Part shown: positions 20,837-39,433 of the stretch, one piece after another | Numbering within the stretch: position 1 is the stretch's first letter | Layout of the letters: each line of letters starts with the position of its first letter | IMG/VR virus record: IMGVR_UViG_3300020044_005177 | Location: 1 to 48,143 of that record | Direction: 5' to 3' (one strand) | DNA from: a virus | Lineage: Duplodnaviria > Caudoviricetes | Length of the DNA stretch: 48,143 nucleotides | Position numbers and translations under genes: made by a program | Notes under the pieces: generated by a model | What the model was told of the DNA's origin: nothing | What the model saw: only the letters and a program-made list of their open reading frames with translations | The model's database searches: none

Positions 20837-20837
<1 letters not shown>

Positions 20838-23655: not shown

Positions 23656-24351
23656 TTGAATATTCCAGTCCTTGATCACGGTTACGTTATGCTCATTAAT
23701 AATATGGGTAGCGATATTGATGTAGTGAACAGCGCACGTACATCTTTTGATAAATCTGTATCAGAACTAAAGATTAAAGATCATAATCTTATTAACTTTC
23801 TAGTAAAAAACAAGCATGATTCTACTCTTCGTCATTGTGTTATGACGTTTGAAGTCTATGCTCCTCTCATGGTTGCTAGACAGTGGTACAAGCACGCTGT
23901 ATCTTCTACTCATCTTGATGATCAATTAGGATGGAATGAATCCTCTCGTCGTTATATAACAGAGAGGGAAGAGTTTTATATTCCTGATCCTAATTCTTGG
24001 AGGTCTGCAACCCTTGATGTAAAGCAAGGTAGTGGAGATCCCGTCTCTCTTTATTATGGTGCTAAGTATAGTCAATGGATGCATAGGATTGTCAAGGAGT
24101 CAGAGGACATGTATCAAGAAGCCCTACGAGACGGCGTAGCGCCTGAACAGGCACGTCTCCTACTTCCTGCCTATGCCATGTATGTTCGTTGGCGTTGGAC
24201 GGCATCATTAAATGCTTTACTTCACTTCTGCTCCCTGCGTTTGGGCCACGGAGCACAGGCTGAAATAGTAGACTATGCCAAGGTAATCAACGACATGGTT
24301 ACGCAGCATTACCCCATAACAGCAAAGGCATGGAATGAGTTTCGAATCTAA
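23656..24351 (+). CDS. thyX: Flavin-dependent thymidylate synthase ThyX
   Basis: NSARTSF, ARQWYKH, WNESSRRY, EQARLLLP and LRL..GAQAEI motifs. TTG start after GAAAGG. Confidence 0.93.
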   Translation: MNIPVLDHGYVMLINNMGSDIDVVNSARTSFDKSVSELKIKDHNLINFLVKNKHDSTLRHCVMTFEVYAPLMVARQWYKHAVSSTHLDDQLGWNESSRRYITEREEFYIPDPNSWRSATLDVKQGSGDPVSLYYGAKYSQWMHRIVKESEDMYQEALRDGVAPEQARLLLPAYAMYVRWRWTASLNALLHFCSLRLGHGAQAEIVDYAKVINDMVTQHYPITAKAWNEFRI

Positions 24352-26237: not shown

Positions 26238-26483
26238 GACTCATTGTACCGCAAAGTTTAAAATACTTAAAAGTTTAATATTCATATTTTTGTAAAGTTT
26301 AAGGATTTGGAATCTTGTACGATACGCAATTCTAAAGCAATGTCAAGCCCAACATAGGCCGCACACATGTGAGGTAGCCCACAAAAAAGAATTTCAAAAT
26401 AAGCCCTAAAATGGTCAAAAGTGTCAGACCCCCATGCTAGACTTTCGTCATAAGGAAAAACGGAAACAACGAAAGGCAAGAAA

Positions 26484-26612
26484 ATGATTTCATCGTTCGC
26501 ACTTGAAGGCAAGACCTCACCCAAGGGTGTCGCTTGCACGGTAGCCCCTAGCGGTTGGCATCGTACTGACGCACACGGTGTGTGCGCTTGGTGCTCACAG
26601 GCTACCCGCTAG
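26484..26612 (+). CDS. 42 aa cassette microprotein (C/H/CxxC)
   Basis: MISSFALEGKTSPKGVACTVAPSGWHRTDAHGVCAWCSQATR. GAAAGG RBS, downstream of motif copy 1. Confidence 0.65.
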   Translation: MISSFALEGKTSPKGVACTVAPSGWHRTDAHGVCAWCSQATR

Positions 26613-26670
26613 CCTCACTGTCAGACCCTACTGCTAGACTAATAACATGAACACAACGAAAGGCAAGAAA

Positions 26671-26796
26671 ATGATTCGCTCGTCAGTCAAGGGTGGTGCT
26701 GCCCAATCACAGCACAAGTGCGTTACCTGCAAGCGCAACATAGGTCGTGCTTTCATTGATGGTGCTCTGTACTGCTACAGCCATCTACCCCGCTGA
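26671..26796 (+). CDS. 41 aa Zn-finger-like microprotein
   Basis: MIRSSVKGGAAQSQHKCVTCKRNIGRAFIDGALYCYSHLPR. GAAAGG RBS; an in-frame leaderless ATG also lies at 26647. Confidence 0.65.
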   Translation: MIRSSVKGGAAQSQHKCVTCKRNIGRAFIDGALYCYSHLPR

Positions 26797-26857
26797 CATC
26801 ACTGTCAGACCCTACTGCTAGACTCTAACTAATAAGCAATCAACGAAAGGCAAGACA

Positions 26858-27007
26858 ATGATCTACTCAGTATCTGAAATGTGGGATGGCCCCATCCGTA
26901 TGTTCGCATCACGCGAGGTAGCCCAAGCATGGATGGAGCAGGCTATAGCCTCAGAGGAAATCTATAGCAGTGAGGGTTTCATGATTGAGGAATGGCCCCT
27001 CCACTAG
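26858..27007 (+). CDS. 49 aa acidic microprotein
   Basis: MIYSVSEMWDGPIRMFASREVAQAWMEQAIASEEIYSSEGFMIEEWPLH. GAAAGG RBS. Confidence 0.65.
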   Translation: MIYSVSEMWDGPIRMFASREVAQAWMEQAIASEEIYSSEGFMIEEWPLH

Positions 27008-27064
27008 GAGTGTCACACCCCCATGCTAGACTCTCAATATAAGCAATCAACGAAAGGCAACACC

Positions 27065-27196
27065 ATGAAGGTTCTCACCACTTCCACTTGGAAGACTTGC
27101 GCTACCTGCCACTCCTACCGCCGTCATGTGTGGGTAGTTGAGGGCAAGGGCATTCAGTGCGCTGCCTGCATGTACCCCGTCTATGTGGAGGCATAG
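27065..27196 (+). CDS. 43 aa CxxC-CxxC microprotein (paralogue of 27823)
   Basis: MKVLTTSTWKTCATCHSYRRHVWVVEGKGIQCAACMYPVYVEA. GAAAGG RBS. Confidence 0.7.
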   Translation: MKVLTTSTWKTCATCHSYRRHVWVVEGKGIQCAACMYPVYVEA

Positions 27197-27197
27197 C

Positions 27198-27383
27198 ATG
27201 AAGACTATCCTAATAGCCGTTGGTACTGCTGCACTTATCCTGCTTACCCTCGCGGTAGTCAATGGTACAGGTAGTACTGATTGCGAGGCTCTGTATAACG
27301 AGTATTCATCTACCGTCGAAATGTCTAGCCGTACCAACATCTTTGATGAGGGTATCGCTAACGGCTGCTTCCACAACAACTAG
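27198..27383 (+). CDS. 61 aa secreted/membrane microprotein
   Basis: MKTILIAVGTAALILLTLAVV... signal-like N-terminus. GGAGG RBS. Confidence 0.6.
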   Translation: MKTILIAVGTAALILLTLAVVNGTGSTDCEALYNEYSSTVEMSSRTNIFDEGIANGCFHNN

Positions 27384-27390
27384 GAGAATC

Positions 27391-27456
27391 ATGAAGGTCA
27401 TAATCCTTTGTATAGCAACGGTTTTTCTGGTTATCAGCCAAGTGCATCTTTTCTAG
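27391..27456 (+). CDS. 21 aa hydrophobic peptide (paralogue of 29127)
   Basis: MKVIILCIATVFLVISQVHLF. AGGAG RBS. Confidence 0.5.
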   Translation: MKVIILCIATVFLVISQVHLF

Positions 27457-27576
27457 GATAGGGCTAAAGTTGTTTAGTACCAACAACTTTTTGGCCCGGG
27501 CAACCGTTACCCAACCGTTACTTAAGAGGTGTCATATAAGGCCCAGAATGTCAGACCCCCCTGCTACAATGAATCC

Positions 27577-27687
27577 ATGATCAAAGAAAACGCAGTCGTT
27601 GCCCCTACTACCCTTGATGAGGATGAGTACTACTCTCCTGATTTCTTTGAGTGCCGCAAAGGCCATGCCTTTTGCGCTAGGCACTAA
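27577..27687 (+). CDS. 36 aa leaderless microprotein (DFFEC..GHAFC.RH)
   Basis: MIKENAVVAPTTLDEDEYYSPDFFECRKGHAFCARH. ATG is 6 nt below TACAAT. Shares its C-terminus with 30374-30562. Confidence 0.7.
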   Translation: MIKENAVVAPTTLDEDEYYSPDFFECRKGHAFCARH

Positions 27688-27822
27688 AAGTTGTTGCGCT
27701 GCAACACTTTTTAGGCGCCCGGGCCATCGTTATCTAACCGTTATTTAAGGTAGGCTCTACGACCCCCTAAATGTCAGACCCCCCTGCTAGACTGGTGTCA
27801 ACATCAACAGATAGGAACTACC

Positions 27823-27945
27823 ATGATCAACATCGTCTCTACCTCGCGCTGGATGACCTGCGTTCGCTGCGCTTCATTCCGTCGTCACGTTGCCCTTGCT
27901 GAGGGTATCGGTGCGCTCTGCTATGCTTGCGTTCACAAGCCCTAG
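27823..27945 (+). CDS. 40 aa CxxC-CxxC microprotein
   Basis: MINIVSTSRWMTCVRCASFRRHVALAEGIGALCYACVHKP. Confidence 0.7.
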   Translation: MINIVSTSRWMTCVRCASFRRHVALAEGIGALCYACVHKP

Positions 27946-27988
27946 CAGGCCCGGGCGACTGTCAGACCCCTGTGATAAGGTGTACCTT

Positions 27989-28141
27989 ATGATAACGATC
28001 TACGAAATCCTGTCCCCCCGTCCCAAGGCTACCAACTATGCCTCTTTCAAGACTAGGGCTGAGGCTGAAAATGCCTTGGCTACCAACAAGATTTCCTTCC
28101 CTGATTTTTCAGGCTATCGAATCTTCGAAACCCTCCGCTAG
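27989..28141 (+). CDS. 50 aa leaderless microprotein
   Basis: MITIYEILSPRPKATNYASFKTRAEAENALATNKISFPDFSGYRIFETLR. Tandem paralogue of the next gene. Confidence 0.75.
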   Translation: MITIYEILSPRPKATNYASFKTRAEAENALATNKISFPDFSGYRIFETLR

Positions 28142-28183
28142 GAGGCCCGGGCAATGTCAGACCCCTATGGTAGGGTATACCTT

Positions 28184-28333
28184 ATGAAGATGATCTATGA
28201 AATCCTGTCCCCCCGTCCGACTGCTACCAACTATGCGACCTTTGCGACCAAGGCTGAGGCTGAGGCTGCCCTTGCTGACCATATCCGCTTCCCAGAGATG
28301 CAGGGCTACCGCATCTTCCAATTCCTCTACTAG
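28184..28333 (+). CDS. 49 aa leaderless microprotein
   Basis: MKMIYEILSPRPTATNYATFATKAEAEAALADHIRFPEMQGYRIFQFLY. Confidence 0.75.
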   Translation: MKMIYEILSPRPTATNYATFATKAEAEAALADHIRFPEMQGYRIFQFLY

Positions 28334-28377
28334 AAAGGCCCGGGGTGACTGTCAGACCCCTGTGCTACGATGCTCTT

Positions 28378-28521
28378 ATGAATCAATGCAGCAAGTGCCC
28401 CCGTCCCTCAGTCTTCATCAGCCCTGACCACACGGACCTCTGCGTCCCTTGCCACGGCATCAAGTACCGCCCTGATCGCAAGGCTCGCAAGATCAAGTCC
28501 AACTACTACCCCTGCTCCTAG
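28378..28521 (+). CDS. 47 aa basic CxxC-CxxC microprotein
   Basis: MNQCSKCPRPSVFISPDHTDLCVPCHGIKYRPDRKARKIKSNYYPCS. Leaderless. Confidence 0.7.
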   Translation: MNQCSKCPRPSVFISPDHTDLCVPCHGIKYRPDRKARKIKSNYYPCS

Positions 28522-28566
28522 CAGGCCCGGGCAGCCAATGTCAGACCCCTATGCTACGATCATCGT

Positions 28567-28716
28567 ATGATGATGACCGAGATTGAGATGCCAGAGTTCG
28601 TTTGCGTCTACTGCGACGAGGAGGTTCCTGACGGCAAGGTCTGCTCCCCCTGCGGTGAGTACAAGGGTGTCATGCGCCTTGCTGATTGGGAAGAATACAC
28701 TAACCTGAAATGGTAG
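28567..28716 (+). CDS. 49 aa CxxC-CxxC microprotein
   Basis: MMMTEIEMPEFVCVYCDEEVPDGKVCSPCGEYKGVMRLADWEEYTNLKW. Leaderless. Confidence 0.7.
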   Translation: MMMTEIEMPEFVCVYCDEEVPDGKVCSPCGEYKGVMRLADWEEYTNLKW

Positions 28717-28785
28717 GAGGCAGCCCGGGAATGTCAGACCCCCATGCTAGTCTTACGTTATAAGACACCAACGAAAGGATGCCCG

Positions 28786-28926
28786 ATGAGCATTGACATC
28801 GACTTCGAAATGGACGTTGATTTTGTGCCCACCACCAACGCACGCTGCAAGGTGTGCAAGGATAGCCTAGAGGGTTGGGAGATGGCCGCTGGCCTCTGCA
28901 TCCTCTGCGAATGCTTGGAGGTGTAG
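28786..28926 (+). CDS. 46 aa CxxC-CxxC microprotein
   Basis: MSIDIDFEMDVDFVPTTNARCKVCKDSLEGWEMAAGLCILCECLEV. GAAAGGA RBS. Confidence 0.7.
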   Translation: MSIDIDFEMDVDFVPTTNARCKVCKDSLEGWEMAAGLCILCECLEV

Positions 28927-28968
28927 GAGGCCCGGGTCAATGTCAGACCCCTGTGCTAGCCTTACGTT

Positions 28969-29127
28969 ATGATCAGAGTTACTTACACCAGCGTCCACCA
29001 TACCCCCGTCATCATCGTTGGCGAATACCGCACCCTTCGCGGTGCTCAGATTGCCGCTGGCCTTCACCTGAATAAGTTGAACTGCCGTGGCCGTGACTGG
29101 CTGACCTATCATTTTGAGGAGGTCTAG
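28969..29127 (+). CDS. 52 aa leaderless microprotein
   Basis: MIRVTYTSVHHTPVIIVGEYRTLRGAQIAAGLHLNKLNCRGRDWLTYHFEEV. Confidence 0.68.
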   Translation: MIRVTYTSVHHTPVIIVGEYRTLRGAQIAAGLHLNKLNCRGRDWLTYHFEEV

Positions 29128-29189
29128 TGCGTATCCTTATCCTAGTGATCATAGTTGTGGTGGCACTTAGTAACATTCACCTGTTCTAG
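29127..29189 (+). CDS. 20 aa hydrophobic peptide
   Basis: GTG start, MRILILVIIVVVALSNIHLF. GAGGAGG RBS. Resembles 27391-27456. Confidence 0.5.
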   Translation: MRILILVIIVVVALSNIHLF

Positions 29190-29235
29190 GTGCCCCGGGC
29201 CAGCCAATGTCAGACCCTTATGATAGGCTTACGCC

Positions 29236-29376
29236 ATGATCACATTGACGCTCCCGCCCCTGTCCACTGGCAACGCTACCTGCTTCCACACGCTTGAGGA
29301 TTTCATCACAGGCTACATGATCCGCTGCTCCAAGTGCGGCTATGAGATGCTGACCGCTGGGACCATTTTCAAGTAG
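29236..29376 (+). CDS. 46 aa leaderless CxH-CxxC microprotein
   Basis: MITLTLPPLSTGNATCFHTLEDFITGYMIRCSKCGYEMLTAGTIFK. Confidence 0.68.
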   Translation: MITLTLPPLSTGNATCFHTLEDFITGYMIRCSKCGYEMLTAGTIFK

Positions 29377-29448
29377 CCGAAAGGCCCCGGGTAATGTCAG
29401 ACCCCTATGGTACGCTTACGCTATAAGAAACCTACGAAAGGAACGCCC

Positions 29449-29574
29449 ATGTACCGCGTCTACCACCTCACCCGCTTCGTCAAGTCCTTCAGCAGCCGTG
29501 ACGCTGCTCTGGATTTCGTCTACTCAAAGCGTGTCCCTGAGGACTATGAGATTCTAGACAAGTCTGATCTTTAG
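29449..29574 (+). CDS. 41 aa microprotein
   Basis: MYRVYHLTRFVKSFSSRDAALDFVYSKRVPEDYEILDKSDL. GAAAGGA RBS. Confidence 0.7.
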   Translation: MYRVYHLTRFVKSFSSRDAALDFVYSKRVPEDYEILDKSDL

Positions 29575-29679
29575 ACTTGCTAGGCCCGGGGCGCTTGCTC
29601 TGAGGCGTGCTTACGTTAAGACCACCCAATGTCAGACCCCCATGGTACGCTATGGCTAACCAACGAAAGGGAACCCCCC

Positions 29680-29862
29680 ATGACCTTCACCCTCGCGCAC
29701 GCAGCCACGGTGCAGCACTTTGGCTACCTCGCCATCATTGACGAGGACCAGCCTACCATGCAGTGCGCTACCTCGCCTGCCGATTTCTTCTCTGCCCCTG
29801 ACTGGGGTTCGCTCGCCCACTATGCTGAGCACTATGACCTATGCGGTTGTGGCTGGCACTAG
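29680..29862 (+). CDS. 60 aa microprotein
   Basis: MTFTLAHAATVQHFGY...YDLCGCGWH. GAAAGGG RBS. Confidence 0.68.
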   Translation: MTFTLAHAATVQHFGYLAIIDEDQPTMQCATSPADFFSAPDWGSLAHYAEHYDLCGCGWH

Positions 29863-29944
29863 CCAGCACGCCCCGGGCACCCTTGCTCCTATCCATCTTA
29901 CGTTATGACTTTACAATGTCAGACCCCAGTGCTATGATCAATCC

Positions 29945-30076
29945 ATGATCACATACGCAGATGACGAGCAGTACTTCCACCGCATTCAAGCCATGATTGA
30001 CCTTGATTTTGAGGATATCATTTCTGTTGAGCGCCTCACCTCTATCCCTGAAAATGACCCTTGGTATCTCCGTTAG
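29945..30076 (+). CDS. 43 aa leaderless acidic microprotein
   Basis: MITYADDEQYFHRIQAMIDLDFEDIISVERLTSIPENDPWYLR. Confidence 0.68.
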   Translation: MITYADDEQYFHRIQAMIDLDFEDIISVERLTSIPENDPWYLR

Positions 30077-30150
30077 GAGTACCGCCCGGGCCGCAATGTC
30101 AGACCCCCGTGTTATGATGACCACATAAGCATCCCAGTTTTGGAGGAACT

Positions 30151-30309
30151 ATGTGGTACGGTGTCCCTGTCAATGGCCTTGCTGTCTCTTTTGGCTGCTT
30201 CGTGCTTGAAACCCCTTGGGATGTGATGAACGTGGACACGGGTGAAATCCGTATGTTTGCCACCTATAAGCAGGCGTATGCCTTTGCCAAGGAGGTGGGG
30301 CTACCATAG
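30151..30309 (+). CDS. 52 aa microprotein
   Basis: MWYGVPVNGLAVSFGCFVLETPWDVMNVDTGEIRMFATYKQAYAFAKEVGLP. GGAGG RBS. Confidence 0.68.
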   Translation: MWYGVPVNGLAVSFGCFVLETPWDVMNVDTGEIRMFATYKQAYAFAKEVGLP

Positions 30310-30373
30310 CCCACCCGGGCCAATGTCAGACCCCTGTGGTAGGCTTACGTTACGTTCAACGAAAGGGTACAAA

Positions 30374-30562
30374 ATGTTCGCTCATCACCTAGACAAGGCA
30401 TCGTTTGGATGCGTCTGCGGTTCCGCTTGGAACTATGCTGAGAAGGGTTGCTCCTATCTCTACCCTGCTGAGGCCACCATGCCTGAGAGCATTGATGAGG
30501 AAGACTACTCATCTGATTTCTTTGAGTGCAGCCACGGCCATGCCTTTTGCGGAAGGCACTAG
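30374..30562 (+). CDS. 62 aa Cys/His microprotein
   Basis: MFAHHLDKASFGCVCG...DFFECSHGHAFCGRH. GAAAGGG RBS. Confidence 0.7.
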   Translation: MFAHHLDKASFGCVCGSAWNYAEKGCSYLYPAEATMPESIDEEDYSSDFFECSHGHAFCGRH

Positions 30563-30712
30563 GCCCGGGTGTTTTCTCGTATTATCGTTTTATGTATGGA
30601 CCAGTATTTTACTGCCGTTCTGCTGTTCGGTCAATACCGAACACCGAACAGCCCGGGCCGCAATGTCAGACCCTCGTGATACGCTTACGCTAACTTCGAT
30701 GAAAGGAACACC

Positions 30713-30919
30713 ATGTTCAGCACCCTGTGGGACACCGAAACCGTTGCCGATGCCGACGTGTGGGCAGACTATGGCGATCACGCTGAGGACACTTGGACCG
30801 ATGCTGAGGCCGATGCGGATACCCTCACCTCTGCGGGGTGGGGTACTGATGAGGACTATGGCTACTATGGTGGTGAGGACGCTGCTATGGAGGGTCATCT
30901 CTTTGGGTGGGACGCTTAG
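30713..30919 (+). CDS. 68 aa extremely acidic protein
   Basis: No Lys or Arg, Asp/Glu-rich, DADTLTSAGWGTDEDYG motif. GAAAGGA RBS. Confidence 0.75.
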   Translation: MFSTLWDTETVADADVWADYGDHAEDTWTDAEADADTLTSAGWGTDEDYGYYGGEDAAMEGHLFGWDA

Positions 30920-30991
30920 GCGTCCCCCCGCCCCGGGTCAATGTCAGACCCCTGTGTTAGACTTACGTCATCACCTACTGAAAGGCACAAC

Positions 30992-31174
30992 ATGAGCCGT
31001 AAAGACTATGTAACGCTGGCAGCCGATCTCGCAATTGACTGGAACTATGCCATTTATCACGGCGAGGCAGCAATGGATATGTTTAACATGGTGCTTGACA
31101 CTATCTGTGATTCGCTCAAGCGTGACAACAGTGCGTTTGATCGTGATAAGTTTGTGTCTGCTGTAAAGGGTTAA
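30992..31174 (+). CDS. 60 aa conserved small phage protein
   Basis: MSRKDY...DNSAFDRDKF.SA, a pattern common among small phage proteins. GAAAGG RBS. Confidence 0.75.
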   Translation: MSRKDYVTLAADLAIDWNYAIYHGEAAMDMFNMVLDTICDSLKRDNSAFDRDKFVSAVKG

Positions 31175-31298
31175 CCGCCTACCCCGCTTAGGCGGGGATA
31201 GGCCCGGGCCGCTGGCCCGTGTGACTCCTTACGTTAAGACCCGGGAATGTCAGACCCCCGTGGTACGCTTACGCTATCCAATCAACGAAAGGCATCAC

Positions 31299-31460
31299 AT
31301 GTCCAAGTCAGTCAAGATGGTGGAGTTCTCGCTCACCAAGCCCAAGTCCGAGGTTCCGTTCGCTACGCTGAACATCCCGCTCAAGAAGTTCAAGGTGCTC
31401 CGCTCAGACTTTGAGGATCTGTCCCTCCGAGTAGAGGTGCTTGACTTCTACAAGAAGTAG
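31299..31460 (+). CDS. 53 aa microprotein
   Basis: MSKSVKMVEF...VLDFYKK. GAAAGG RBS. Confidence 0.7.
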   Translation: MSKSVKMVEFSLTKPKSEVPFATLNIPLKKFKVLRSDFEDLSLRVEVLDFYKK

Positions 31461-31471
31461 AGGAGCGGCCA

Positions 31472-31489
31472 CCCTGCCTTCGGGCAGGG
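31472..31489 (+). terminator. GC hairpin with UUCG loop before CCCGGG
   Basis: CCCTGCC-TTCG-GGCAGGG. Similar hairpins precede CCCGGG at about 27466, 27687, 29376, 30908, 31180, 31976, 33067, 33833, 35050 and 40113. Confidence 0.6.
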
Positions 31490-31599
31490 CTGGCCCCGGG
31501 CAGTCGTTATCAAAACGTTATTTAAGATGACCCTCTACGAAACCCAAAATGTCATACCCCCATGCTAGACTGGCGTCATCGTCAAAAGAAAGGCTCCAC

Positions 31600-31746
31600 A
31601 TGTTCGTCTACCTCGTCAACCTCACCAACGGCAAGTCCATTCGCGTCGTCACCGATGGCGACCCAACCGACCATCCCTCATTCTTCAATAAGGTTGAGTC
31701 TGTCGAAACCATAGGCGAGCATGGTCGCCTGCTCTCACTCGTATAA
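31600..31746 (+). CDS. 48 aa microprotein
   Basis: MFVYLVNLTNGKSIRVV...LLSLV. GAAAGG RBS. Confidence 0.7.
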   Translation: MFVYLVNLTNGKSIRVVTDGDPTDHPSFFNKVESVETIGEHGRLLSLV

Positions 31747-31776
31747 ATGTCAGACCCTAGTGCTAGGATGATACCT

Positions 31777-31971
31777 ATGAAGATCCCAAGTGTTGAGTGC
31801 AATGACTGCCGTATCGACGGATTCTATGACGTGGCGATGAACCCTACGGGTATAGAGTCTCAGGGTGAGGACTGGGTGAACGTTGCCTACCGCTGCCCTC
31901 GCTGTGGAGAGCGTGACTATGCGATGTTCGGATTCTCCCTGTCTGAACTCTGTGAGAAGGTGTCAGCATGA
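31777..31971 (+). CDS. 64 aa leaderless CxxC-CxxC protein
   Basis: MKIPSVECNDC...YRCPRCG.... Confidence 0.7.
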   Translation: MKIPSVECNDCRIDGFYDVAMNPTGIESQGEDWVNVAYRCPRCGERDYAMFGFSLSELCEKVSA

Positions 31972-32257
31972 GCAAGGGCTTCGGCCCCGGGCTGCTAGAT
32001 CGTCATTGGGGTTTACGTTAAGACAGTATGCCAGCGCCAAACGGCCCTCGACTCCCCGGAGATCCCAGCCATGCGACAACACTACTACAGTTATTAACTC
32101 TGAATGTTACTATCGGCTGCGCTGTTGTCACCGCGAGTCCCCTGAACACGCCGCCGATCCAGGCGTGTCCGTGCAGGAACTCCCGGGCGACGTGCAGGCC
32201 CGTGACCCCCTTATGTTAAGACATACGAATGTCAGACCCCTCTGCTAAGGTTTACCT

Positions 32258-32365
32258 ATGACAATCTGCGATAAAGAAATCTGGGACGGTAACCACGATG
32301 ATCCGTCATATGCCTATTGCGATCTCCCCGCGAATCATGCGGGTGAGCACCACTACTCTTTCTGA
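32258..32365 (+). CDS. 35 aa leaderless C/C/H/H microprotein
   Basis: MTICDKEIWDGNHDDPSYAYCDLPANHAGEHHYSF. Confidence 0.65.
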   Translation: MTICDKEIWDGNHDDPSYAYCDLPANHAGEHHYSF

Positions 32366-32429
32366 CCCGAAATGTCAGACCCCTATGCTAGACTCACGTC
32401 ATAAGCAAAAGACGAAAGGGTTCCCAGTC

Positions 32430-32624
32430 ATGATCTTCTCCTACTCAGACATAAACTCTATGCACGCATCTACAGAGTGGGGCATAGTAGAGTGGGAGTG
32501 GGGTTCTCACTATGCTTATCTGGAAGGTTACCCCGTTTTCTCTTTTGGCTTTGAAAAAAATGTCACTTCCCAATTAGATTTCATAACCGAACTACTAGAA
32601 TGGATGGAGTACTCAAATGTATAA
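32430..32624 (+). CDS. 64 aa hypothetical protein
   Basis: MIFSYSDINSMH... after a GAAAGGG RBS. Confidence 0.65.
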   Translation: MIFSYSDINSMHASTEWGIVEWEWGSHYAYLEGYPVFSFGFEKNVTSQLDFITELLEWMEYSNV

Positions 32625-32925
32625 GCACAAGCACCTAGACCTTAGCAACTATTTCGATGAGGACGATGCGATTGACATCATCGTATTCTTCAAGAGCGGT
32701 GACCACGCTCAGATCACAGACATCATGGGGAGTGTCTCTATTGATGAGCAGTTCATGAGTGTTCAGCAGACTGGACGGTATGCAAGGTCATTCTACTTTG
32801 ATGCTGACTCAGTTCGGTACTTCGCTATCTGCCCCCGTGAGAATGGTAACGCTTGGAAGCGTAAGGTCATGTCTCGTGAGGCAGAGAGTGATCTTATTAA
32901 TGAGACGTTCAACCTAGAGGACTAG
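32617..32925 (+). CDS. 102 aa hypothetical protein
   Basis: From the ORF track. GGAG RBS, overlaps the previous stop. Confidence 0.7.
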   Translation: MYKHKHLDLSNYFDEDDAIDIIVFFKSGDHAQITDIMGSVSIDEQFMSVQQTGRYARSFYFDADSVRYFAICPRENGNAWKRKVMSREAESDLINETFNLED

Positions 32926-32928
32926 GGG

Positions 32929-33063
32929 ATGAAATCTAATCTAGAGATAACAGAGAAGGAGTTCATCATCTCTCAATACATCAAACAGTCAATCGTCAAC
33001 ATCGACAACCCATTGAGGGCAAAGGAGTTTTTGGTTTCTGCCTTGAGGGTGGTGCATGGGTGA
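32929..33063 (+). CDS. 44 aa hypothetical protein
   Basis: MKSNLEITEKEFIISQYIKQSIVNIDNPLRAKEFLVSALRVVHG. GAGG RBS. Confidence 0.55.
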   Translation: MKSNLEITEKEFIISQYIKQSIVNIDNPLRAKEFLVSALRVVHG

Positions 33064-33180
33064 TAACCGTTGGGGCGCAAGAACTTTGCGCCTCACGGCC
33101 CGGGCCATCGTTATCATTCTGTTATTTAAGATGACCTCATACGACCCCCGAATGTCAGACCCCTCTGCTAGTCTTATGAC

Positions 33181-33345
33181 ATGACGATCACAGAAACGAA
33201 AGCGAATCACTGCTCAGCCTCAACCTCTTGTGAGATCCCTGCCATTGGCTACTACATTGTGGCATGGGGTAAGTGGTACGCCTGCGAGCGACACTTCTCG
33301 CACCCTGTTTTTATCAACCGCAAATTCTATGTGGAGGTATCGTGA
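33181..33345 (+). CDS. 54 aa leaderless Cys/His microprotein
   Basis: MTITETKANHCSASTSCEIPAIGYYIVAWGKWYACERHF.... Confidence 0.65.
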   Translation: MTITETKANHCSASTSCEIPAIGYYIVAWGKWYACERHFSHPVFINRKFYVEVS

Positions 33346-33452
33346 TGACTCACGATGAGAACTGCCCGTGCAGCAAGGCAAAGGAGTGCTTCCTTATTTC
33401 AATGGCTACAGGCAAGTGCATTTCCTGCGAGTGTTCCTACATGGAGGTATAG
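33345..33452 (+). CDS. 35 aa Cys-rich peptide (HDENCPC), copy 1
   Basis: MTHDENCPCSKAKECFLISMATGKCISCECSYMEV. GGAGG RBS. Confidence 0.7.
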   Translation: MTHDENCPCSKAKECFLISMATGKCISCECSYMEV

Positions 33453-33454
33453 TA

Positions 33455-33565
33455 ATGATTCACGATGAGAACTGCCCGTGCAGTAGTGCAACTGAGTGCT
33501 ACCTTATTTCAAAATACACAGGTGTTTGTATTGCCTGCGAGTGTTCCTACTATGAAGGGGTATAG
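33455..33565 (+). CDS. 36 aa Cys-rich peptide (HDENCPC), copy 2
   Basis: MIHDENCPCSSATECYLISKYTGVCIACECSYYEGV. GGAGG RBS, tandem duplicate of copy 1. Confidence 0.7.
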   Translation: MIHDENCPCSSATECYLISKYTGVCIACECSYYEGV

Positions 33566-33567
33566 TA

Positions 33568-33819
33568 ATGATTGATTGGTTCGATAGTGAGTGGGCAGAC
33601 AATGCTTTCTTTGCAGTCTTCAATGGCATCCTTGCTCATATTGATGTTGCTGAGGCTGAGACAGGTTGGTTCTACATGGTTCAGGTTGGACCTGAGCGTT
33701 GTGAGTACCCCGAGATTTTTTCGTGTGGCACTCTGCCAACGCTTGAGGAGGCTCAGGCTAGGGCTGAGGAAAAAATGGTTGAGGCTGATAGTACTTATCA
33801 GCATATAGTTTATTCCTAG
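33568..33819 (+). CDS. 83 aa acidic hypothetical protein
   Basis: From the ORF track, coupled to the previous gene. Confidence 0.65.
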   Translation: MIDWFDSEWADNAFFAVFNGILAHIDVAEAETGWFYMVQVGPERCEYPEIFSCGTLPTLEEAQARAEEKMVEADSTYQHIVYS

Positions 33820-34086
33820 CATGACTTGGGGCTTATCTCATACTAAGGAACATTCTTGGTATGGGATAGGCCCCGGGCATGTGCTCTACCGTATCGTATA
33901 GATACGATTAAGACCCCTGCGAAATATAACCAAATGTAACTGAAGCACGGTTACATTTGGCATGTACCCCCGCTGCGTAATGGTAACCTAAAGTGCTGCG
34001 TAATGGAACACCTAGCCCGGGCCGCTGGCCCGTGACCTCTTACGTTATGAACCCTGAATGTCAGACCCCCATGCTAAGGTGTACCT

Positions 34087-34236
34087 ATGATAAAGAAAAT
34101 GAGGCGTAGCCCAGAGGCCCAGCGGCGTGTAGATGAATTGCGTCGGAGCAATGCTGCCCAACCGCATAGGAGCAAGGTGACCTATACGCGCAAGGTTAAG
34201 CACAAAAATTTCTCCCACTCATCTATTGACAACTGA
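34087..34236 (+). CDS. 49 aa basic leaderless microprotein (YTRKxKH motif)
   Basis: MIKKMRRSPEAQRRVDELRRSNAAQPHRSKVTYTRKVKHKNFSHSSIDN. Confidence 0.7.
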   Translation: MIKKMRRSPEAQRRVDELRRSNAAQPHRSKVTYTRKVKHKNFSHSSIDN

Positions 34237-34254
34237 CCAGACCTAAGATAGGAT
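34226..34254 (+). promoter_or_regulatory. SigA-type promoter driving leaderless gene 34261
   Basis: TTGACA-17 nt-TAGGAT-6 nt-ATG. The same -35/17 nt/-10 layout occurs at 35382, 36257, 37572, 38752 and 39560. Confidence 0.75.
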
Positions 34255-34260
34255 CATACC

Positions 34261-34812
34261 ATGACCACGATGACGATTGACCAGACCGACTATCACTCTA
34301 CCGTCGCAACTTTCAGCGACTTCATCATGCGTGCTACGCTTGCTCAGGTAGAGCAGGCTAGCGTGTGGTATTTCGAGGCCGAGGCTGTAGCCCGTGAGGT
34401 TGCTGCCAATATGACGTTGGACCTAGACCGTGCAGCGTGCATCGTGTCTGCATTCTCTCCCCGTGAGCGTTGGTCCGTCAACGTTCGCAAGGCTCTCGCC
34501 TACTCTGTCGGCCTGCCCGTCACTGGTCTGTCCAACAATGTAACGATGGCTGACGCTAGCCTAGTGCATGGCTTCGATGCGCTTAAGGGTCTGAAGACAA
34601 ATGCCTTCGCCCGTGCCATCGCTGGCGATACTGACGCTGTAGTCATTGACGTTTGGATGTGCCGTGCTGCCAACCTTGGGACCGACTCACCAAATAAGAC
34701 GCAATACAATTTCTTGGCCGATGCCGTTCGGGATACGGCACAATTGTTTGGCCTCTCACCTCGCACCGCTCAGGCGCTTATCTGGATCATCGTTAGGGGT
34801 AGTCATGCTTAG
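34261..34812 (+). CDS. Conserved phage protein, possibly DNA-glycosylase-like helical fold
   Basis: WY..A, SAFSP...W..N, KTNAF, VVIDVWM.R and QALIW motifs. The fold assignment is tentative. Confidence 0.55.
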   Translation: MTTMTIDQTDYHSTVATFSDFIMRATLAQVEQASVWYFEAEAVAREVAANMTLDLDRAACIVSAFSPRERWSVNVRKALAYSVGLPVTGLSNNVTMADASLVHGFDALKGLKTNAFARAIAGDTDAVVIDVWMCRAANLGTDSPNKTQYNFLADAVRDTAQLFGLSPRTAQALIWIIVRGSHA

Positions 34813-34948
34813 AGTAGAAATGCCAATGAAGTCATGGGATGACCTATTGTTCATGCTGTCTCTTCTAGACACTCAGTATATTCCTTCCGCAGAAATCGAC
34901 ATCATGTACGCAGACATCTCCACCCAAATCTACAGTCAGGAATCCTAG
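34805..34948 (+). CDS. 47 aa hypothetical protein
   Basis: MLRVEMPMKSWDDLLF..., overlaps the previous stop. Confidence 0.5.
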   Translation: MLRVEMPMKSWDDLLFMLSLLDTQYIPSAEIDIMYADISTQIYSQES

Positions 34949-35188
34949 TGAGCATAATGACCATAATTACCAACATGATTTTTTTCTTCCTACTCATGGC
35001 CATGCTTGGATCATGCGTCAATCTGTTTGATGGGGGAATGGTTATGCCATAGCCGAGAGGCTACGGCCCGGGCACGCCTTGCCATTTGTCAAGGGTTTAC
35101 GACAGTGATTAAGGTAACCCCAAAACCCCTACCGAATGTCAGACGAGTGTGCTATGGTGTACCTATCAATAAAAACCTAGGAGTAGAC

Positions 35189-35407
35189 ATGAGCACTGAT
35201 CTTATGGAGGTCTTCTCCCTTGAGGAGAATGACCAAATCTATGTGCAAGGCAATCTCTACCGTATCGTTTCCATTGACTATGATGAGATGAGTTACCATG
35301 ATCATATCCTTACCCTCGCAGATGAGGAAGGCAGCCTCAAGAAGATGTGTGCTACGTCACACCAGAAAGTTCGCCTAGTGCTTGACAATGACTACGCCAT
35401 AGTGTAG
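35189..35407 (+). CDS. 72 aa hypothetical protein
   Basis: MSTDLMEVFSLEENDQIYV.... AGGAG RBS, below the last, divergent motif copy. Confidence 0.7.
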   Translation: MSTDLMEVFSLEENDQIYVQGNLYRIVSIDYDEMSYHDHILTLADEEGSLKKMCATSHQKVRLVLDNDYAIV

Positions 35408-35472
35408 ACTAAAGACATAACAACAACGGAGATGCTCACCGTGGCTCTCCTCAACGAAAGGGTGGATACACA

Positions 35473-35637
35473 ATGAAGGTTATCGTCGCAACTGAGACGT
35501 GGAACGTCAACGGCAAGACTGTCGCCAAGGCAGTTGTTCGCAAGACGGACGGCACGTTTGTTGGTGCAACCAACCAGACCAAGACGCTTGAGACTCCCAA
35601 GGTCGTGCGTCCTCGTGTGACCATCGTCGGTCGCTAG
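35473..35637 (+). CDS. 54 aa basic microprotein
   Basis: MKVIVATETWNVNGKTVAKAVVRKTDGTFVGATNQTKTLETPKVVRPRVTIVGR. Confidence 0.7.
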   Translation: MKVIVATETWNVNGKTVAKAVVRKTDGTFVGATNQTKTLETPKVVRPRVTIVGR

Positions 35638-35644
35638 AGACAGA

Positions 35645-35670
35645 CACCTGAGCATGTGCTAAAACTGCTC
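35645..35670 (+). ncRNA. Putative H-type pseudoknot motif, copy 1
   Basis: cac-CTGAGCAT-gtg-ctAAAAC-TGCTC. Confidence 0.55.
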
Positions 35671-35702
35671 AAACCCTCAACCCAACAAACAAAGGAAATC
35701 AC

Positions 35703-35846
35703 ATGTCAGTGTTCATGAGCAAGGTCGGTTCGGAGTTCACTTCGCAGAAGTCAGGTTACACTGGCATTATCGCGGAGATCGTTGCCAATGACAACGGCAC
35801 TCATCGCGTTCGTTTTGAGGACGGACGTTGGACTACGGTTTCGTAG
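35703..35846 (+). CDS. 47 aa small beta-rich (SH3-like) protein
   Basis: MSVFMSKVGSEFTSQKSGYTGIIAEIVANDNGTHRVRFEDGRWTTVS. AAAGGA RBS. Confidence 0.7.
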   Translation: MSVFMSKVGSEFTSQKSGYTGIIAEIVANDNGTHRVRFEDGRWTTVS

Positions 35847-35931
35847 ACTAGGCTTGGGGGTATGCGACCCGCTTCGTGCATCGACTCGCTGACCCCAAGG
35901 GGGCAGGGCTACTAGTAGCAATAACCCCAAA

Positions 35932-35959
35932 CATCCTGAGCATGATGATAAAACTGCTC
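35932..35959 (+). ncRNA. Putative H-type pseudoknot motif, copy 2
   Basis: catc-CTGAGCAT-gatg-atAAAAC-TGCTC, ending 4 nt before tRNA-Asp. Confidence 0.6.
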
Positions 35960-35963
35960 CCAT

Positions 35964-36036
35964 GCGATTGTAGAACAGCGGTTAGTTCGCCACCCTGTCA
36001 CGGTGGAGGTCGTGGGTTCGAATCCCATCAGTCGCG
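35964..36036 (+). tRNA. tRNA-Asp (GTC)
   Basis: Acceptor GCGATTG/CAGTCGC, anticodon arm CCACC-CTGTCAC-GGTGG, T arm GTGGG-TTCGAAT-CCCAT. No encoded CCA. Confidence 0.92.
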
Positions 36037-36325
36037 CTAGGGGGTAAGACAGGTGTGAAGGCCAGCGAGGGAATTCTAGATACTCTCTCAAAACCCGACA
36101 CACTTCCGCTTACCCCCGCCTACCCCCTCCTCACAGGTTGAGCATCCACCCACCCGCTCCCTGTGGGGAGGGGCTTCAACCGCCCGGGCCGCAAACCTTG
36201 ATTTGTCAAGGTTTACGAAAGTGATTTACGATACACGAAAATGTTTCCCGAAACTATTGACTCAGCCCCTGTGATGCTGTATTGTTTACCTATAAGAAAG
36301 TTCACCTAAACGATTGGAGATCATC

Positions 36326-37309
36326 ATGGCACATATGCTTGAGCAGTACGGCGAAATGGCTGCATTCGCTTCCCTTCGCCTGCCTGCGTGGACAGGTCTT
36401 GGCACTATCCTGACCGATGAGGTCACTACGCTTCAGATGCTTGAGGCTGCATACCTTGACAAGTGGAACGTGCGCTGCGAGGAAATTATACTCCCAGGAC
36501 GTTCGCACCGCAACTACTTCGCTACCGTTCGCACCAACCCGTTTGACGGTGAGGATGACGTTCTTGGCGTTGTGGGTGAGCGTTACAAGGTTCTCCAGAA
36601 TGAGGAACTGTTTGCCTTTGGCGACAACATCCTTGACGGCGCACGGTGGGAGACTGCTGGCTCTATCAAGAATGGCACGGTCGTGTTCGGCTCCCTCGCT
36701 CTTGAGCGTGAGTCTGTTATCGACAAGGATGGCGTTGGCGATAAGGTCAACACCTACCTTCTGGTCCACACTTCGCATGACGGTTCCCTCGCTATTCAGG
36801 CGAGCATCACCCCTGTGCGTGTTGTCTGCCAGAATACGCTGAACATGGCGGTGGGTTCTGCCAAGCAGTCTTTCCGCATCCGTCACACCTCTACCGTCGC
36901 AGGCAAGATCACGGCAGCACGAGAGGCGCTTGGCCTTGCACACAAGTACATGGACGAGTTCGACATTCAGGCACAGGCAATGTTTGAGCAGTCGATCACG
37001 GCTGACAAGTTCTTTGAGATCGTCAAGGCTGCATACCCTGAGCCTGAGGCTGATGTCAAGGGCGCAGCGACCAAGTGGACCAACAAGGTTGACACCCTGT
37101 TTGACATCTGGAATGGTCCCACTAGCGTGGGTATCAAGGATACTGCTTGGGGTGCGTACAACACGCTGACTGAGCGGCTTGACTGGTATCGCAATCCTCG
37201 TGGGGGCAATGCTGAGAGTGTGCTTGCGGCTGCTAGTGGTTTCGACGCAGCGACCAACGCTGAGAAGAATCGTCTGCTTGGCATCGTGAAGGAACTCGCC
37301 TTCGCATAG
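36326..37309 (+). CDS. DUF932 / TIGR03299-like phage-plasmid protein
   Basis: MAH start, AWTGLG, LGVVGERYKVLQN, WETAGSI..G, SHDGS, TPVRVVCQNTL, IRHT and TAWGAYN motifs. Confidence 0.88.
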   Translation: MAHMLEQYGEMAAFASLRLPAWTGLGTILTDEVTTLQMLEAAYLDKWNVRCEEIILPGRSHRNYFATVRTNPFDGEDDVLGVVGERYKVLQNEELFAFGDNILDGARWETAGSIKNGTVVFGSLALERESVIDKDGVGDKVNTYLLVHTSHDGSLAIQASITPVRVVCQNTLNMAVGSAKQSFRIRHTSTVAGKITAAREALGLAHKYMDEFDIQAQAMFEQSITADKFFEIVKAAYPEPEADVKGAATKWTNKVDTLFDIWNGPTSVGIKDTAWGAYNTLTERLDWYRNPRGGNAESVLAAASGFDAATNAEKNRLLGIVKELAFA

Positions 37310-37314
37310 CATGG

Positions 37315-37341
37315 TATCCTGAGCATGATATAAAACTGCTC
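37315..37341 (+). ncRNA. Putative H-type pseudoknot motif, copy 3
   Basis: tatc-CTGAGCAT-gata-tAAAAC-TGCTC, ending 4 nt before tRNA-Asn. Confidence 0.6.
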
Positions 37342-37345
37342 ACAT

Positions 37346-37417
37346 TCTCCACTAACTCAACGGCAGAGTGAGCGACTGTTAATCGCTTGGTTCGTGGTTC
37401 GAATCCACGGTGGAGAG
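37346..37417 (+). tRNA. tRNA-Asn (GTT)
   Basis: Acceptor TCTCCAC/GTGGAGA, anticodon arm AGCGA-CTGTTAA-TCGCT, T loop TTCGAAT. Confidence 0.92.
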
Positions 37418-37422
37418 CGCAA

Positions 37423-37494
37423 GGGGGTGGAGCACGGCGGCTGTGCTGCTGACTCTTAATCAGTAGGTCGTGGGTTCGAATCCCACCACCCCCA
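37423..37494 (+). tRNA. tRNA-Lys (CTT), atypical D arm
   Basis: Acceptor GGGGGTG/CACCCCC, anticodon arm GCTGA-CTCTTAA-TCAGT, T arm GTGGG-TTCGAAT-CCCAC. Confidence 0.85.
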
Positions 37495-37606
37495 CAAAGA
37501 ACCGCCCGGGCCGCTGGCCCCGCCTGTTTACGATAACCATTAAGGATTCCCGAAAATCTTTCCCAAAACCCTTGACAACCTATTGCCCATCGTATAGACT
37601 GACGAC

Positions 37607-37768
37607 ATGAAGACAGAGACAATGACTACAGCGGAAATGCAAGAACTCTATGAAGTTCTGGGCTTTGAAGCCTATATGTGCATCGTCAAGCGCAAGTCAG
37701 ATGGTGTGACTGGCGTACTTTACTTTGATCATGCACCTCGTGTATACTACAACTTCCGACCAGTATAG
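37607..37768 (+). CDS. 53 aa leaderless protein
   Basis: MKTETMTTAEMQELYEVLGFEAYMCIVKRKSDGVTGVLYFDHAPRVYYNFRPV. ATG is 6 nt below TTGACA-17-TAGACT. Confidence 0.72.
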   Translation: MKTETMTTAEMQELYEVLGFEAYMCIVKRKSDGVTGVLYFDHAPRVYYNFRPV

Positions 37769-37776
37769 GAGATATC

Positions 37777-38253
37777 ATGACCACGTTTAACGATCCCCGC
37801 CTTGGTGCGAGCCTTGACAATCCCTCGCTCGCTGACCGTGTTATCAATCTGTCCAAGGAACTGTCTGAGGCAAACGATAAGATCGGATTGCTCACCCTTG
37901 CAAAGAATGACATGGATCAAGCGGTAGAGCGATCAGCAACTTGGCAGAAGATGTATGTTCGTCTGACCAATCAGATTGACAATGTGGCAACCATCATCAA
38001 GGATGCGATCATCGCTGATGACGTTGACGTAGATACTCTGAAGAGTATTGCCGAGGAACTCAACATTGCTCTTACCCGCGAGGTTCGTATCAAGATGACG
38101 ATCACCGCAAGCGGTACGGCTACCGTTCCCATCGACTTTGACCTTGACGACATTGACGGTGAGATCAGGGTTGAGTTCAGCAACAACTATGGTACTGATA
38201 CTGAACTGAACATTGATGTCGATGACATGACTGTAGATTGCGAGGACATCTAG
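37777..38253 (+). CDS. 158 aa coiled-coil/acidic hypothetical protein
   Basis: From the ORF track. AGGAGA RBS. Confidence 0.75.
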   Translation: MTTFNDPRLGASLDNPSLADRVINLSKELSEANDKIGLLTLAKNDMDQAVERSATWQKMYVRLTNQIDNVATIIKDAIIADDVDVDTLKSIAEELNIALTREVRIKMTITASGTATVPIDFDLDDIDGEIRVEFSNNYGTDTELNIDVDDMTVDCEDI

Positions 38254-38492
38254 TGTCTACCCTGCTTGACGAGAATACTATGGCTCTTGTCATTTCTGAG
38301 TCTGGAACTGTCCACGTTAAGGCTTGGTTTAGTAAGACAGTCTGTGGCAAGGACTGTTGGGACAGTCACAGGTGGTGGTATGGAGGCTTGACAAACCTGC
38401 GTTGGGTTGGTAGACTAGCACAGTCCACCAAGTCCAACCACTTCTGCAAGGCATGTGCCCGAACCTATAAGGATGTGAATATCAATGGCTAA
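38253..38492 (+). CDS. Hypothetical protein (H..C..CxxC)
   Basis: Likely GTG start overlapping the previous TAG. Contains VH...TVCG...FCKAC. Confidence 0.6.
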   Translation: MSTLLDENTMALVISESGTVHVKAWFSKTVCGKDCWDSHRWWYGGLTNLRWVGRLAQSTKSNHFCKACARTYKDVNING

Positions 38493-38664
38493 GTATATTG
38501 TTCGATATGAGTCCCGCGATTACTACGAGAAGGAGTATGAGGCTAATTCATTTGATGAGGCTGAAACTCTATTCTATGCTGATGACAAGTTGTTTGGGGG
38601 TAAGCCATATAATTCTGACATGGAACTGATTGAGGTTGTGAATCACGATGGACTCTATGAGTGA
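38485..38664 (+). CDS. 59 aa acidic protein
   Basis: MAKYIVRYESRDYYEKEYEANSFDEAETLFY.... Confidence 0.6.
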   Translation: MAKYIVRYESRDYYEKEYEANSFDEAETLFYADDKLFGGKPYNSDMELIEVVNHDGLYE

Positions 38665-38785
38665 CTATGAGCAACTAGAGTTTGACTTTGACTATGCGGA
38701 GGAACAGTGGAAGAAGATTCAGAATGCTACCTCATGACTATACCCCCGCTATTGACTAGCAAAGACAAACGTAGTAAGATCTGGT

Positions 38786-39055
38786 GTGCAACACACAAAC
38801 GATATGTCAAGGGAGAATGCAATGCTGCATCTGTATGAGGTCAAGGAAGACGGCGAGCACTATTGGGAGGTATACAAGAATGACCCCATCATACCTTGGA
38901 GCGATAATTTCGTAGAGTGCTTTGATGACAATGAGTTTACTGCTTATCACACGGACCTCATGGCACGAGGCTTGGACTTCGTTATTCATTTCTATGACGA
39001 GGATGTCGATGAGTACCATCTAGTGCTAGAACCACAAAGGTTGGTGAAGGCATAG
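38786..39055 (+). CDS. 89 aa acidic hypothetical protein
   Basis: GTG start just below a TTGACT-17-TAAGAT promoter. Confidence 0.65.
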   Translation: MQHTNDMSRENAMLHLYEVKEDGEHYWEVYKNDPIIPWSDNFVECFDDNEFTAYHTDLMARGLDFVIHFYDEDVDEYHLVLEPQRLVKA

Positions 39056-39094
39056 TCCTAAGGAATTCCCTAAGGACTATGGTATACTTATCAT

Positions 39095-39433
39095 ATGAAC
39101 GGATGGGAAACCAAAAGGGAAAGTAGATTCTGGTCGCAGATCGAAAGACGAAGCGAGCAGGAGTGTTGGCCTTGGTTGGGTAAAGTAGACAAAGATGGAT
39201 ATGGTTTCTTCTGGTGCGAACGCCCAAAGATACAGCGTAGCCATAGATACATGTTCTATAAAACAAATGGATATCTGCCTGAGGTTGTAAGGCATACATG
39301 CGATAATCCTAACTGTAATAACCCAAGCCACCTTCTAGGTGGAACACAAGGAGACAACAATAGAGACACCGTAGAGCGAGGCCGTTGGTCTTGTGGGTGG
39401 CTCAAAGATAAAGAATCGCTATCTAATAAATGA
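39095..39433 (+). CDS. HNH endonuclease (HNH_3-like)
   Basis: RFWSQI...CWPWLG...GYG.F...HR...VRHTCDNPNCNNPSHL..GT..DN..D motif. Confidence 0.85.
   Translation: MNGWETKRESRFWSQIERRSEQECWPWLGKVDKDGYGFFWCERPKIQRSHRYMFYKTNGYLPEVVRHTCDNPNCNNPSHLLGGTQGDNNRDTVERGRWSCGWLKDKESLSNK

Follow-up and report, generated by a model that had tools for sequence, protein, structure and literature searches.

Promoter-led small-gene units in a phage array are probably gained, lost and reordered whole at short shared boxes

How phages trade small early genes without breaking them is the question raised by an array of small genes in IMG/VR record IMGVR_UViG_3300020044_005177, a 48-kb virus record that is a genome fragment and whose 48,143 nucleotides we refer to as the window. 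A sequence-only reading had described about 28 repeated units over about 9 kb and proposed that the repeated frame lets the phage gain, lose, duplicate and reorder them, with breaks at CCCGGG or TGTCAGACCC as the expected sign. Such changes are seen among close strains, and we conclude, with a probability of about 0.7, that promoter–microgene units are gained, lost and reordered whole at one or the other of these sequences, most likely by short-homology recombination and with no dedicated integrase.

The anatomy of the array bears out that first description. We counted 28 frames of the form TGTCA-N8-TG-N-TAnnnT on the plus strand from 26422 to 35137, the copy at 35137 being degenerate. When TGTCAGACCC was searched with at most one mismatch, all 27 matches fell on the plus strand within 26422-34068, where shuffled sequences gave a mean of 2.4 and a maximum of 8. 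Units of 180-235 bp were said to be common, and 15 of 27 are of this length; one open reading frame (ORF) per unit was said to be usual, and 23 of the 28 units have one, with two to four in the remaining five by our reading of the ORF map. Payloads had been described as mostly unrelated, and the 39 ORFs, 20-183 aa long, make up 35 families, four paralogue pairs included. CCCGGG has 29 copies, all between 27495 and 40152 (shuffle mean 3.9), and those at 36183, 37505 and 40152 lie past the limit first set for the array. In 22 of 28 frames the box is placed after the stop codon and before the promoter (it is missing from the first four and from those at 31748 and 32373); the optional hairpin, taken as an upstream one of -8 kcal/mol or lower, is found in only six.

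The frame looks like a promoter, as had been proposed, and each unit would have its own. TGTCA starts 16 nt before the -10 hexamer, leaving an 11-nt gap, and for this reason it is ruled out as a -35 element. No -35 consensus is found 17 bp before the -10 in the 28 frames, and a TTGACA-type site occurs in none of them, the scan picking up only 29917. In 25 of 28 frames the base at +6 after the -10 is an A. An ATG stands at +6/+7 in 13 frames, as in leaderless messages, and all 15 frames without it have a ribosome-binding-like word. The motif is family-wide, with 155 loci in 7 of the 64 parts of IMG/VR and an estimated 1,100 or so stretches. A WhiA target box was also considered and rejected: GTGTC is present in 2 of 28 frames, and the TGTCAGACCC-type box sits between the -35 and -10 positions, where in the part of the WhiA structure paper available the GACAC motif lies upstream of the -35 (PMC10243135).

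Close strains differ in which units they carry and in what order. Of the 29 loci from a metagenome scan, ten belong to close strains that have the box, some of them probably pieces of one strain; 16 were dropped as high-GC single matches without similarity to the window; and L213, L216 and L219 are farther relatives, kept outside the linkage map and the adjacency count, although L219 gave one pair for the substitution comparison below. The ten close-strain contigs contain 53 distinct adjacencies, 19 of which join two genes with window orthologues. Nine of the 19 are conserved and ten are new (two of the ten resting on 76% matches inside paralogue families), and a frame lies between the genes in nine of the ten. 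The first reading had named identical gene order and content among relatives as what would refute it, and this is not what the strains show: they differ by whole units. Two units are extra in L205, from which gene 28969 is missing, and L221 is without the 30151 unit and without five others between 27989 and 29236. In L218 the segment 29386-29590 lies box to box behind gene 32929 (98% identity), and the 30151 unit is placed after a 30713-type gene.

Sixteen DNA runs labelled lake or freshwater contain 29-35% of the array's words (RNA runs contain 5-8%), and contigs from eight of the sixteen were compared with the window. Their joints include 30090>30321 (five runs), 27491>27718, 31208>31246, 27686>28143, 27686>28350, 27686>29386 and 29200>27960. 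The first of these also occurs in L221 and has 255 letters per side in X1, and both forms of the 30090 junction are present within each of X2, X3 and X16. The backward joints 29200>27960 and 29200>28539, with depths of 33 and 19, fit another strain's order better than rare circles. Among the joints listed, 32 distinct ones lie in 26372-34013, six outside that range being left out; 23 of 58 joint ends fall in frames, which make up 8.4% of the array, and among intergenic ends the figure is 23 of 39, where 24% is expected.

To place the break, we used a linkage map of 69 unique junctions, with 27 same-upstream pairs and 29 same-downstream pairs. Pairs with only the upstream gene in common share its tail (mean identity 0.63, versus 0.27 for unrelated pairs) and not the linker, promoter or leader. 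Pairs with only the downstream gene in common share the linker (0.61 versus 0.28), the promoter (0.91 versus 0.75) and the leader (0.87 versus 0.35). Since the tail goes with the gene before it and the linker, promoter and leader go with the gene after it, a unit in most cases spans the stretch from one box to the next. The break is placed at the box in L222 and L220, where linkers of 39-48 bp remain attached to the downstream gene, and the 27577-27687 unit retains its long linker behind different upstream genes in L220 and L207. At four joints (28691>28939, 29200>27960, 29200>28539 and 27686>28350) a short linker is kept by the upstream gene, so the break there lies in AATGTCAGACCC, and TGTCAGACCC is therefore also used. 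One crossover in L205 lies at the far end of the promoter, and further changes go through paralogous genes, hairpins or a gene-end word. That crossovers are spread over the box, TGTCAGACCC and elsewhere argues against one cut site.

Box-to-box loss is also seen in cultured phages, the best cultured relatives being Streptomyces BE/BK phages. A 9-bp box, CCG-(CCC or GGG)-CGG, has 21 copies in the terminal repeat of phage Yaboi and one in the 63,387 bp examined outside it; Bordeaux has 20, Enygma 16, and Daubenski and NootNoot six each, and the stretches of Moab and Francesca examined have none. Among events picked from four pairwise comparisons, which are not a count of all differences, Enygma is without the Yaboi 1180-1585 unit and both Yaboi and Enygma are without the Bordeaux 6457-6751 unit, each with a join at the 9-bp box and flanks from either side. 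A third unit, Yaboi 5295-5684, is absent from Bordeaux and Enygma, where a different right linker is found; NootNoot and Daubenski are too diverged from one another for joints to be mapped. As in the array, a unit of these repeats combines a hairpin, a GC box, a linker, a promoter and a small gene; units are lost box to box, DUF932 is carried, and the surrounding gene order is the same. Unlike the array, the repeats have this other box, promoters without TGTCAGACCC (0 in the Yaboi repeat) and larger genes (records MH727564, MN369757, PP358745). The paper on cluster BE phages, of the Stanwilliamsviridae, describes the repeats, and no box or shuffling appears in it (PMC5764925). At three matching sites of the BE2 phages the 3-bp core of the box flips between CCC and GGG (L001 744, 5684 and 8195 versus L244 742, 5322 and 8219), which may be micro-inversion or conversion.

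In the mechanism that we propose, transcription by host RNA polymerase would start immediately from each extended -10 promoter, and about half of the promoters would give leaderless messages. Every unit would open with the same 6-9-bp box and 13-26-bp promoter core, and because it does, an exchange there would move an intact gene with its own promoter. The exchange could occur between co-infecting genomes or between two terminal-repeat copies. Its likely agents would be a phage RecA-like recombinase, a Cas4-like exonuclease, SSB and resolvases, with RecA-independent slippage as an alternative at the shortest homologies. RecA is present in all five relatives that are 92-100% complete, and G001, the closest complete relative examined (capsid 90% identical), encodes UvsX, SSB, a Cas4-like exonuclease, two resolvases and WhiB, 77 of its 107 long ORFs having been scanned. 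The initial reading saw no dedicated recombinase in the window; we find no tyrosine recombinase among 46 ORFs of this genome fragment, and in the same five relatives no tyrosine integrase, serine resolvase, RecT, Rad52 or ERF (PF00589, PF00239, PF03837, PF04098, PF04404), for which controls were positive in 14, 12, 4, 2 and 1 of 14 genomes, the last three being the weaker controls.

Several points weigh against this account. RecA-type exchange would be expected to need more than six to nine shared bases, yet the long-linker units and two BE2 events break at only that many; the window's own recombination genes are also not in the 48-kb fragment. A match of 80% or more is reached by the tail in no more than 10 of the 27 pairs with the same upstream gene and by the linker in no more than 9 of the 29 with the same downstream gene; as the pairs are not independent and the joints listed are part of a longer set, significance is overstated. 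Alignments are drawn to conserved frames, which makes the odds of frame enrichment generous. The changes away from frames include in-gene divergence, the loss in X1 of a 33345-33565 paralogue copy via 15 bp shared inside the genes, the loss of gene 28969 in L205 through a word that gene ends share, and a hairpin that travels together with the unit downstream. The difference between synonymous and nonsynonymous change (pS 0.19 versus pN 0.04 across 35 gene pairs with relatives, covering 22 window genes) counts in favour of the account, but comes from pairs filtered at 75% protein identity, which favours a low value. The runs were compared as contigs throughout, and no transcript, circle or rate was seen in them.

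A dedicated phage or host protein could instead bind the GC dyad and cut or swap DNA, the box being the exchange site of an unrecognised enzyme. The two BE2 events that join unrelated flanks at the 9-bp box would fit this, as would the long linkers that mostly follow the downstream gene, so that the break falls at 6-9 bp though longer homology lies 39-49 bp away. Gene-less box-to-box segments come and go too, the Yaboi box has dyad symmetry and its 3-bp core flips between matching sites, and CCGG is depleted outside the array (14 versus 47 expected in the window; 8 versus 61 in G001). We nevertheless consider such a protein unlikely: the integrase and serine resolvase families are in none of the five relatives, crossovers also occur in TGTCAGACCC and elsewhere, the box varies among lineages and is missing from six window frames, and relatives without CCCGGG still vary in unit content. 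The wider proposal, that the GC dyad is the target of a cut-and-join activity in an integrase-free cassette system of the terminal repeat, swapping at 6-9 bp from lake phages to Streptomyces BE phages, would likewise be a long shot.

The frame might also be regulatory only, with illegitimate, random breaks from which selection keeps those that spare gene and promoter. TTACG stands 18-33 nt downstream of 16 of the 29 boxes, and 17 of 23 TTACG sites are so placed where 3% would be expected, as in a two-part binding site; the gap from stop codon to promoter is often below 20 bp, leaving few other harmless places to break; and 14 of the 32 joints listed have neither end in a frame, a count that also tells against exchange at the frame. 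We doubt this explanation, because the excess in frames persists among the intergenic ends and because one complete box is kept in register at the junctions, an outcome rarely expected of random joining. Far less probable is that the differences in order are assembly chimeras across repeats, even though the close-strain comparisons use metagenome contigs of mixed strains and one side of several joints is just 20-50 letters long. Chimeras are made unlikely by the shortness of the exact matches between window frames, at most 26 bases with a median of 13; the 30090>30321 joint, with long flanks in X1, recurs across runs and in L221, relatives carry genes that the window lacks, and the BE2 isolate genomes show the same kind of event.

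We regard the array as a variant, mostly without a stem-loop, of the promoter-early stem-loop (PeSL) cassettes of the T4-type phages RB49/phi1, PST/T4 and nt-1/KVP40. As far as the accessible text of the PeSL papers goes, both have repeated early promoters before ORFans (here predicted from anatomy), close relatives that differ by whole genes gained or lost at the repeats, more than one crossover position within the element and no named integrase (PMC2839356, PMC4122927). PeSL cassettes have sigma-70 -35 and -10 elements, whereas here there is no -35 and the TGTCAGACCC box lies 11 bp from an extended -10; they have a stem-loop terminator and about 100 bp of conservation, whereas here a 6-9-bp GC box is a main joint and the hairpin is infrequent. 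Unlike PeSL cassettes, 13 of 28 array genes look leaderless. Promoter activity and mini-circles were shown for PeSL cassettes in the parts of these papers available; the promoters of the array are predicted. The window does not belong with the T4-type phages, its protease being nearest to Stanwilliamsviridae.

Integron arrays are made of promoterless single-gene cassettes that change in order and content, with IntI and attC hairpin sites. The array shares the single-gene units of varying order and content, but the PF00589 family to which an IntI-type recombinase would belong is in none of the five relatives, most frames lack an attC-like hairpin, and every unit has a promoter, so it is not an integron. 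The interpretation first offered thus stands for the promoter-like frame, the shuffling at it and the likeness to PeSL cassettes, and falls for the integron. Start-associated motifs of actinophages, such as those of Microbacterium phage clusters EC, EF, EG and EI, like the array, are oriented repeats in short gaps before small genes, with different sequences; in the portion of that paper available their roles are reported as unknown and no exchange at the motifs is described (PMC7302621). In the open-access literature searched, most of it at the level of listings and with word look-ups in PMC13191466 and PMC13587820, nothing was seen that describes the motif, the box or such shuffling for actinophages.

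Shuffling of regulatory cassettes is thereby extended from T4-type phages to a large actinophage family (the stretches with the promoter motif estimated above), with joints mapped to very short homologies and alternative junctions inside single lake runs. How phages trade small early genes becomes testable, because phages cultured on Streptomyces lividans, S. griseus and S. mirabilis show the same box-to-box losses. The type of promoter, which lacks a -35 and has a conserved box in its spacer, is a second point of interest.

This lake phage likely infects Actinobacteria. The left part of the window, on the minus strand, encodes holin, tail fibres, ribonucleotide reductase, portal, protease and capsid; the head proteins are 41-53% identical to those of Yaboi, and protease matches among 157 records come from phages of Streptomyces (127), Vibrio (20) and Rhodococcus (9), the best being Stanwilliamsviridae. 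The gene whiB has been used as a pointer to an actinobacterial host (PMC10914622, in the part available), and the WhiB of G001 points the same way. In Yaboi the small genes of the terminal repeat run opposite to the structural genes, with DUF932 inside and thyX just outside the repeat. Given this shared gene order, the array probably sits where the long terminal repeat lies in Streptomyces BE phages and is probably a collapsed repeat. Contig depth, which gives no copy number, rises near 26.35 kb in X1, X2 and X15 and not in X4. The array would also be the early region of the phage, a role that fits, by analogy only, a Listeria phage whose terminal-repeat genes peak at 5 minutes in the available part of that report (PMC12282133). 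Coordinates are collected in Table 1.

Table 1. Features of the array and its surroundings (window positions)
Feature	Position	Strand	Remark
Array of 28 promoter-led units	26422..35407	+	39 small ORFs, 35 families
Predicted promoters AATGTCAGACCCC-nn-TG-n-TAnnnT (28)	26422..35158	+	extended -10, no -35, 13 predicted leaderless
Predicted promoter starts 1-14	26422, 26619, 26803, 27011, 27549, 27772, 27960, 28155, 28350, 28539, 28732, 28941, 29208, 29395	+	
Predicted promoter starts 15-28	29630, 29917, 30097, 30324, 30664, 30942, 31248, 31550, 31748, 32230, 32373, 33153, 34059, 35137	+	
CCCGGG boxes (29)	27495..40157	.	26 in array, plus 36183, 37505, 40152
Unit with 36-aa ORF 27577-27687	27495..27717	+	lost in X1
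Unit with 41-aa ORF 29449-29574	29386..29590	+	translocated in L218
Unit with 52-aa ORF 30151-30309	30085..30319	+	lost box to box in L221, X1, X2, X3, X15, X16; two places downstream in L218
Non-coding box-to-box segment with 7-bp inverted repeat at 30624	30564..30657	+	
Non-coding box-to-box segment	31203..31245	+	absent in X11, X16, L218
Tandem paralogous microgenes	33345..33565	+	one copy lost in X1
DUF7178 protein	34261..34812	+	homologue in 4,862-bp terminal repeat of Rhodococcus phage Francesca
DUF932 protein	36326..37309	+	matches Yaboi gene 4, itself in 12,432-bp terminal repeat
Thymidylate synthase gene	23656..24351	+	on the array's strand, just upstream; in Yaboi just outside repeat

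A blastn search with the array against 50,697 phage records gave no match, the box-plus-promoter pattern gave 25 single matches and no array in IMG/VR, and the 32617 protein has no IMG/VR relative. Host-takeover or anti-defence roles, as first proposed, are candidate functions for the microgenes: PHROGs gave no match for 33 of 36 array ORFs scanned, Pfam gave only DUF7178, DUF932 and one sub-threshold match for 37 array and nearby ORFs, and Rfam gave three tRNAs only. A CxxC pair is present in 11 of 39 array microproteins (26484-35407) and further ones are cysteine-rich, which suggests small metal-binding proteins.

The box together with TTACG is likely to be, in the first place, a control site at which a protein docks; in short-linker units the promoter is nested between the two, and a protein bound there could shut it off. 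A reading of the box as a disabled promoter, with an inverted -35 about 15 nt away, was rejected because it fits just 2 of 29 boxes (35067 and 36183). CCCGGG is absent in 15 DUF932-linked loci, and in G001 and G004 comparable places are taken by other GC cores. Within 26.3-41 kb, 29 of 31 CCGG sites are boxes, and AGCT occurs 0 times versus 135 expected in the window parts tested, 0 times in G004 and once in G001, a pattern that looks like restriction-site avoidance sparing the box. Four 48-49-bp linkers (27506, 27729, 31506, 33110) contain a GTTAY-N6-GTTAY direct repeat, with a fifth copy at 23513, which we assume to resemble sites of MtrA/GlnR-type regulators. Linkers after the GC core also have words like host regulator sites (G004:C1 66000-84000; G001:C1 16000-32000). 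What we take to be CRP-like palindromes number 11 in that region of G004 versus one outside, and exact 9-mers that presumably are DnaA-box-like number five versus none outside in G001 and four versus two in G004; the window has no exact DnaA-like word.

Among relatives without the box (L033, L034, L035, L029), the promoter often follows the stop codon directly, some promoters having a classical -35 word immediately ahead of TGTCA (7 of 230). Unit content still varies in these relatives, and L034 has the 31600-type gene twice. In L030 and L037 the upstream block of TGTCAGACCC promoters is on the strand opposite to DUF932, beside a GC core, an apparent inversion. DNA left of the array (window 25161-26383 versus L220, L202 and L210) is 73-86% identical and shared units are up to 93% identical, which hints at recent unit exchange between diverged genomes. 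The inverted repeat at 30624-30643, with 7-bp arms and a 6-bp gap, is kept in L218, L221 and L222 and relocated in L218; we take its arms to be those of the mycobacteriophage cluster O repeat. Within the early region or next to it are genes for tRNA-Asp, -Asn and -Lys and for two HNH endonucleases (35964-36037, 37346-37495, 24335-24700, 39095-39433). The tail-fibre genes at 14043-16673 and 17592-20837 are glycine-rich and collagen-like, and the first of them is a high-GC island (56-58%) in an AT-rich arm.

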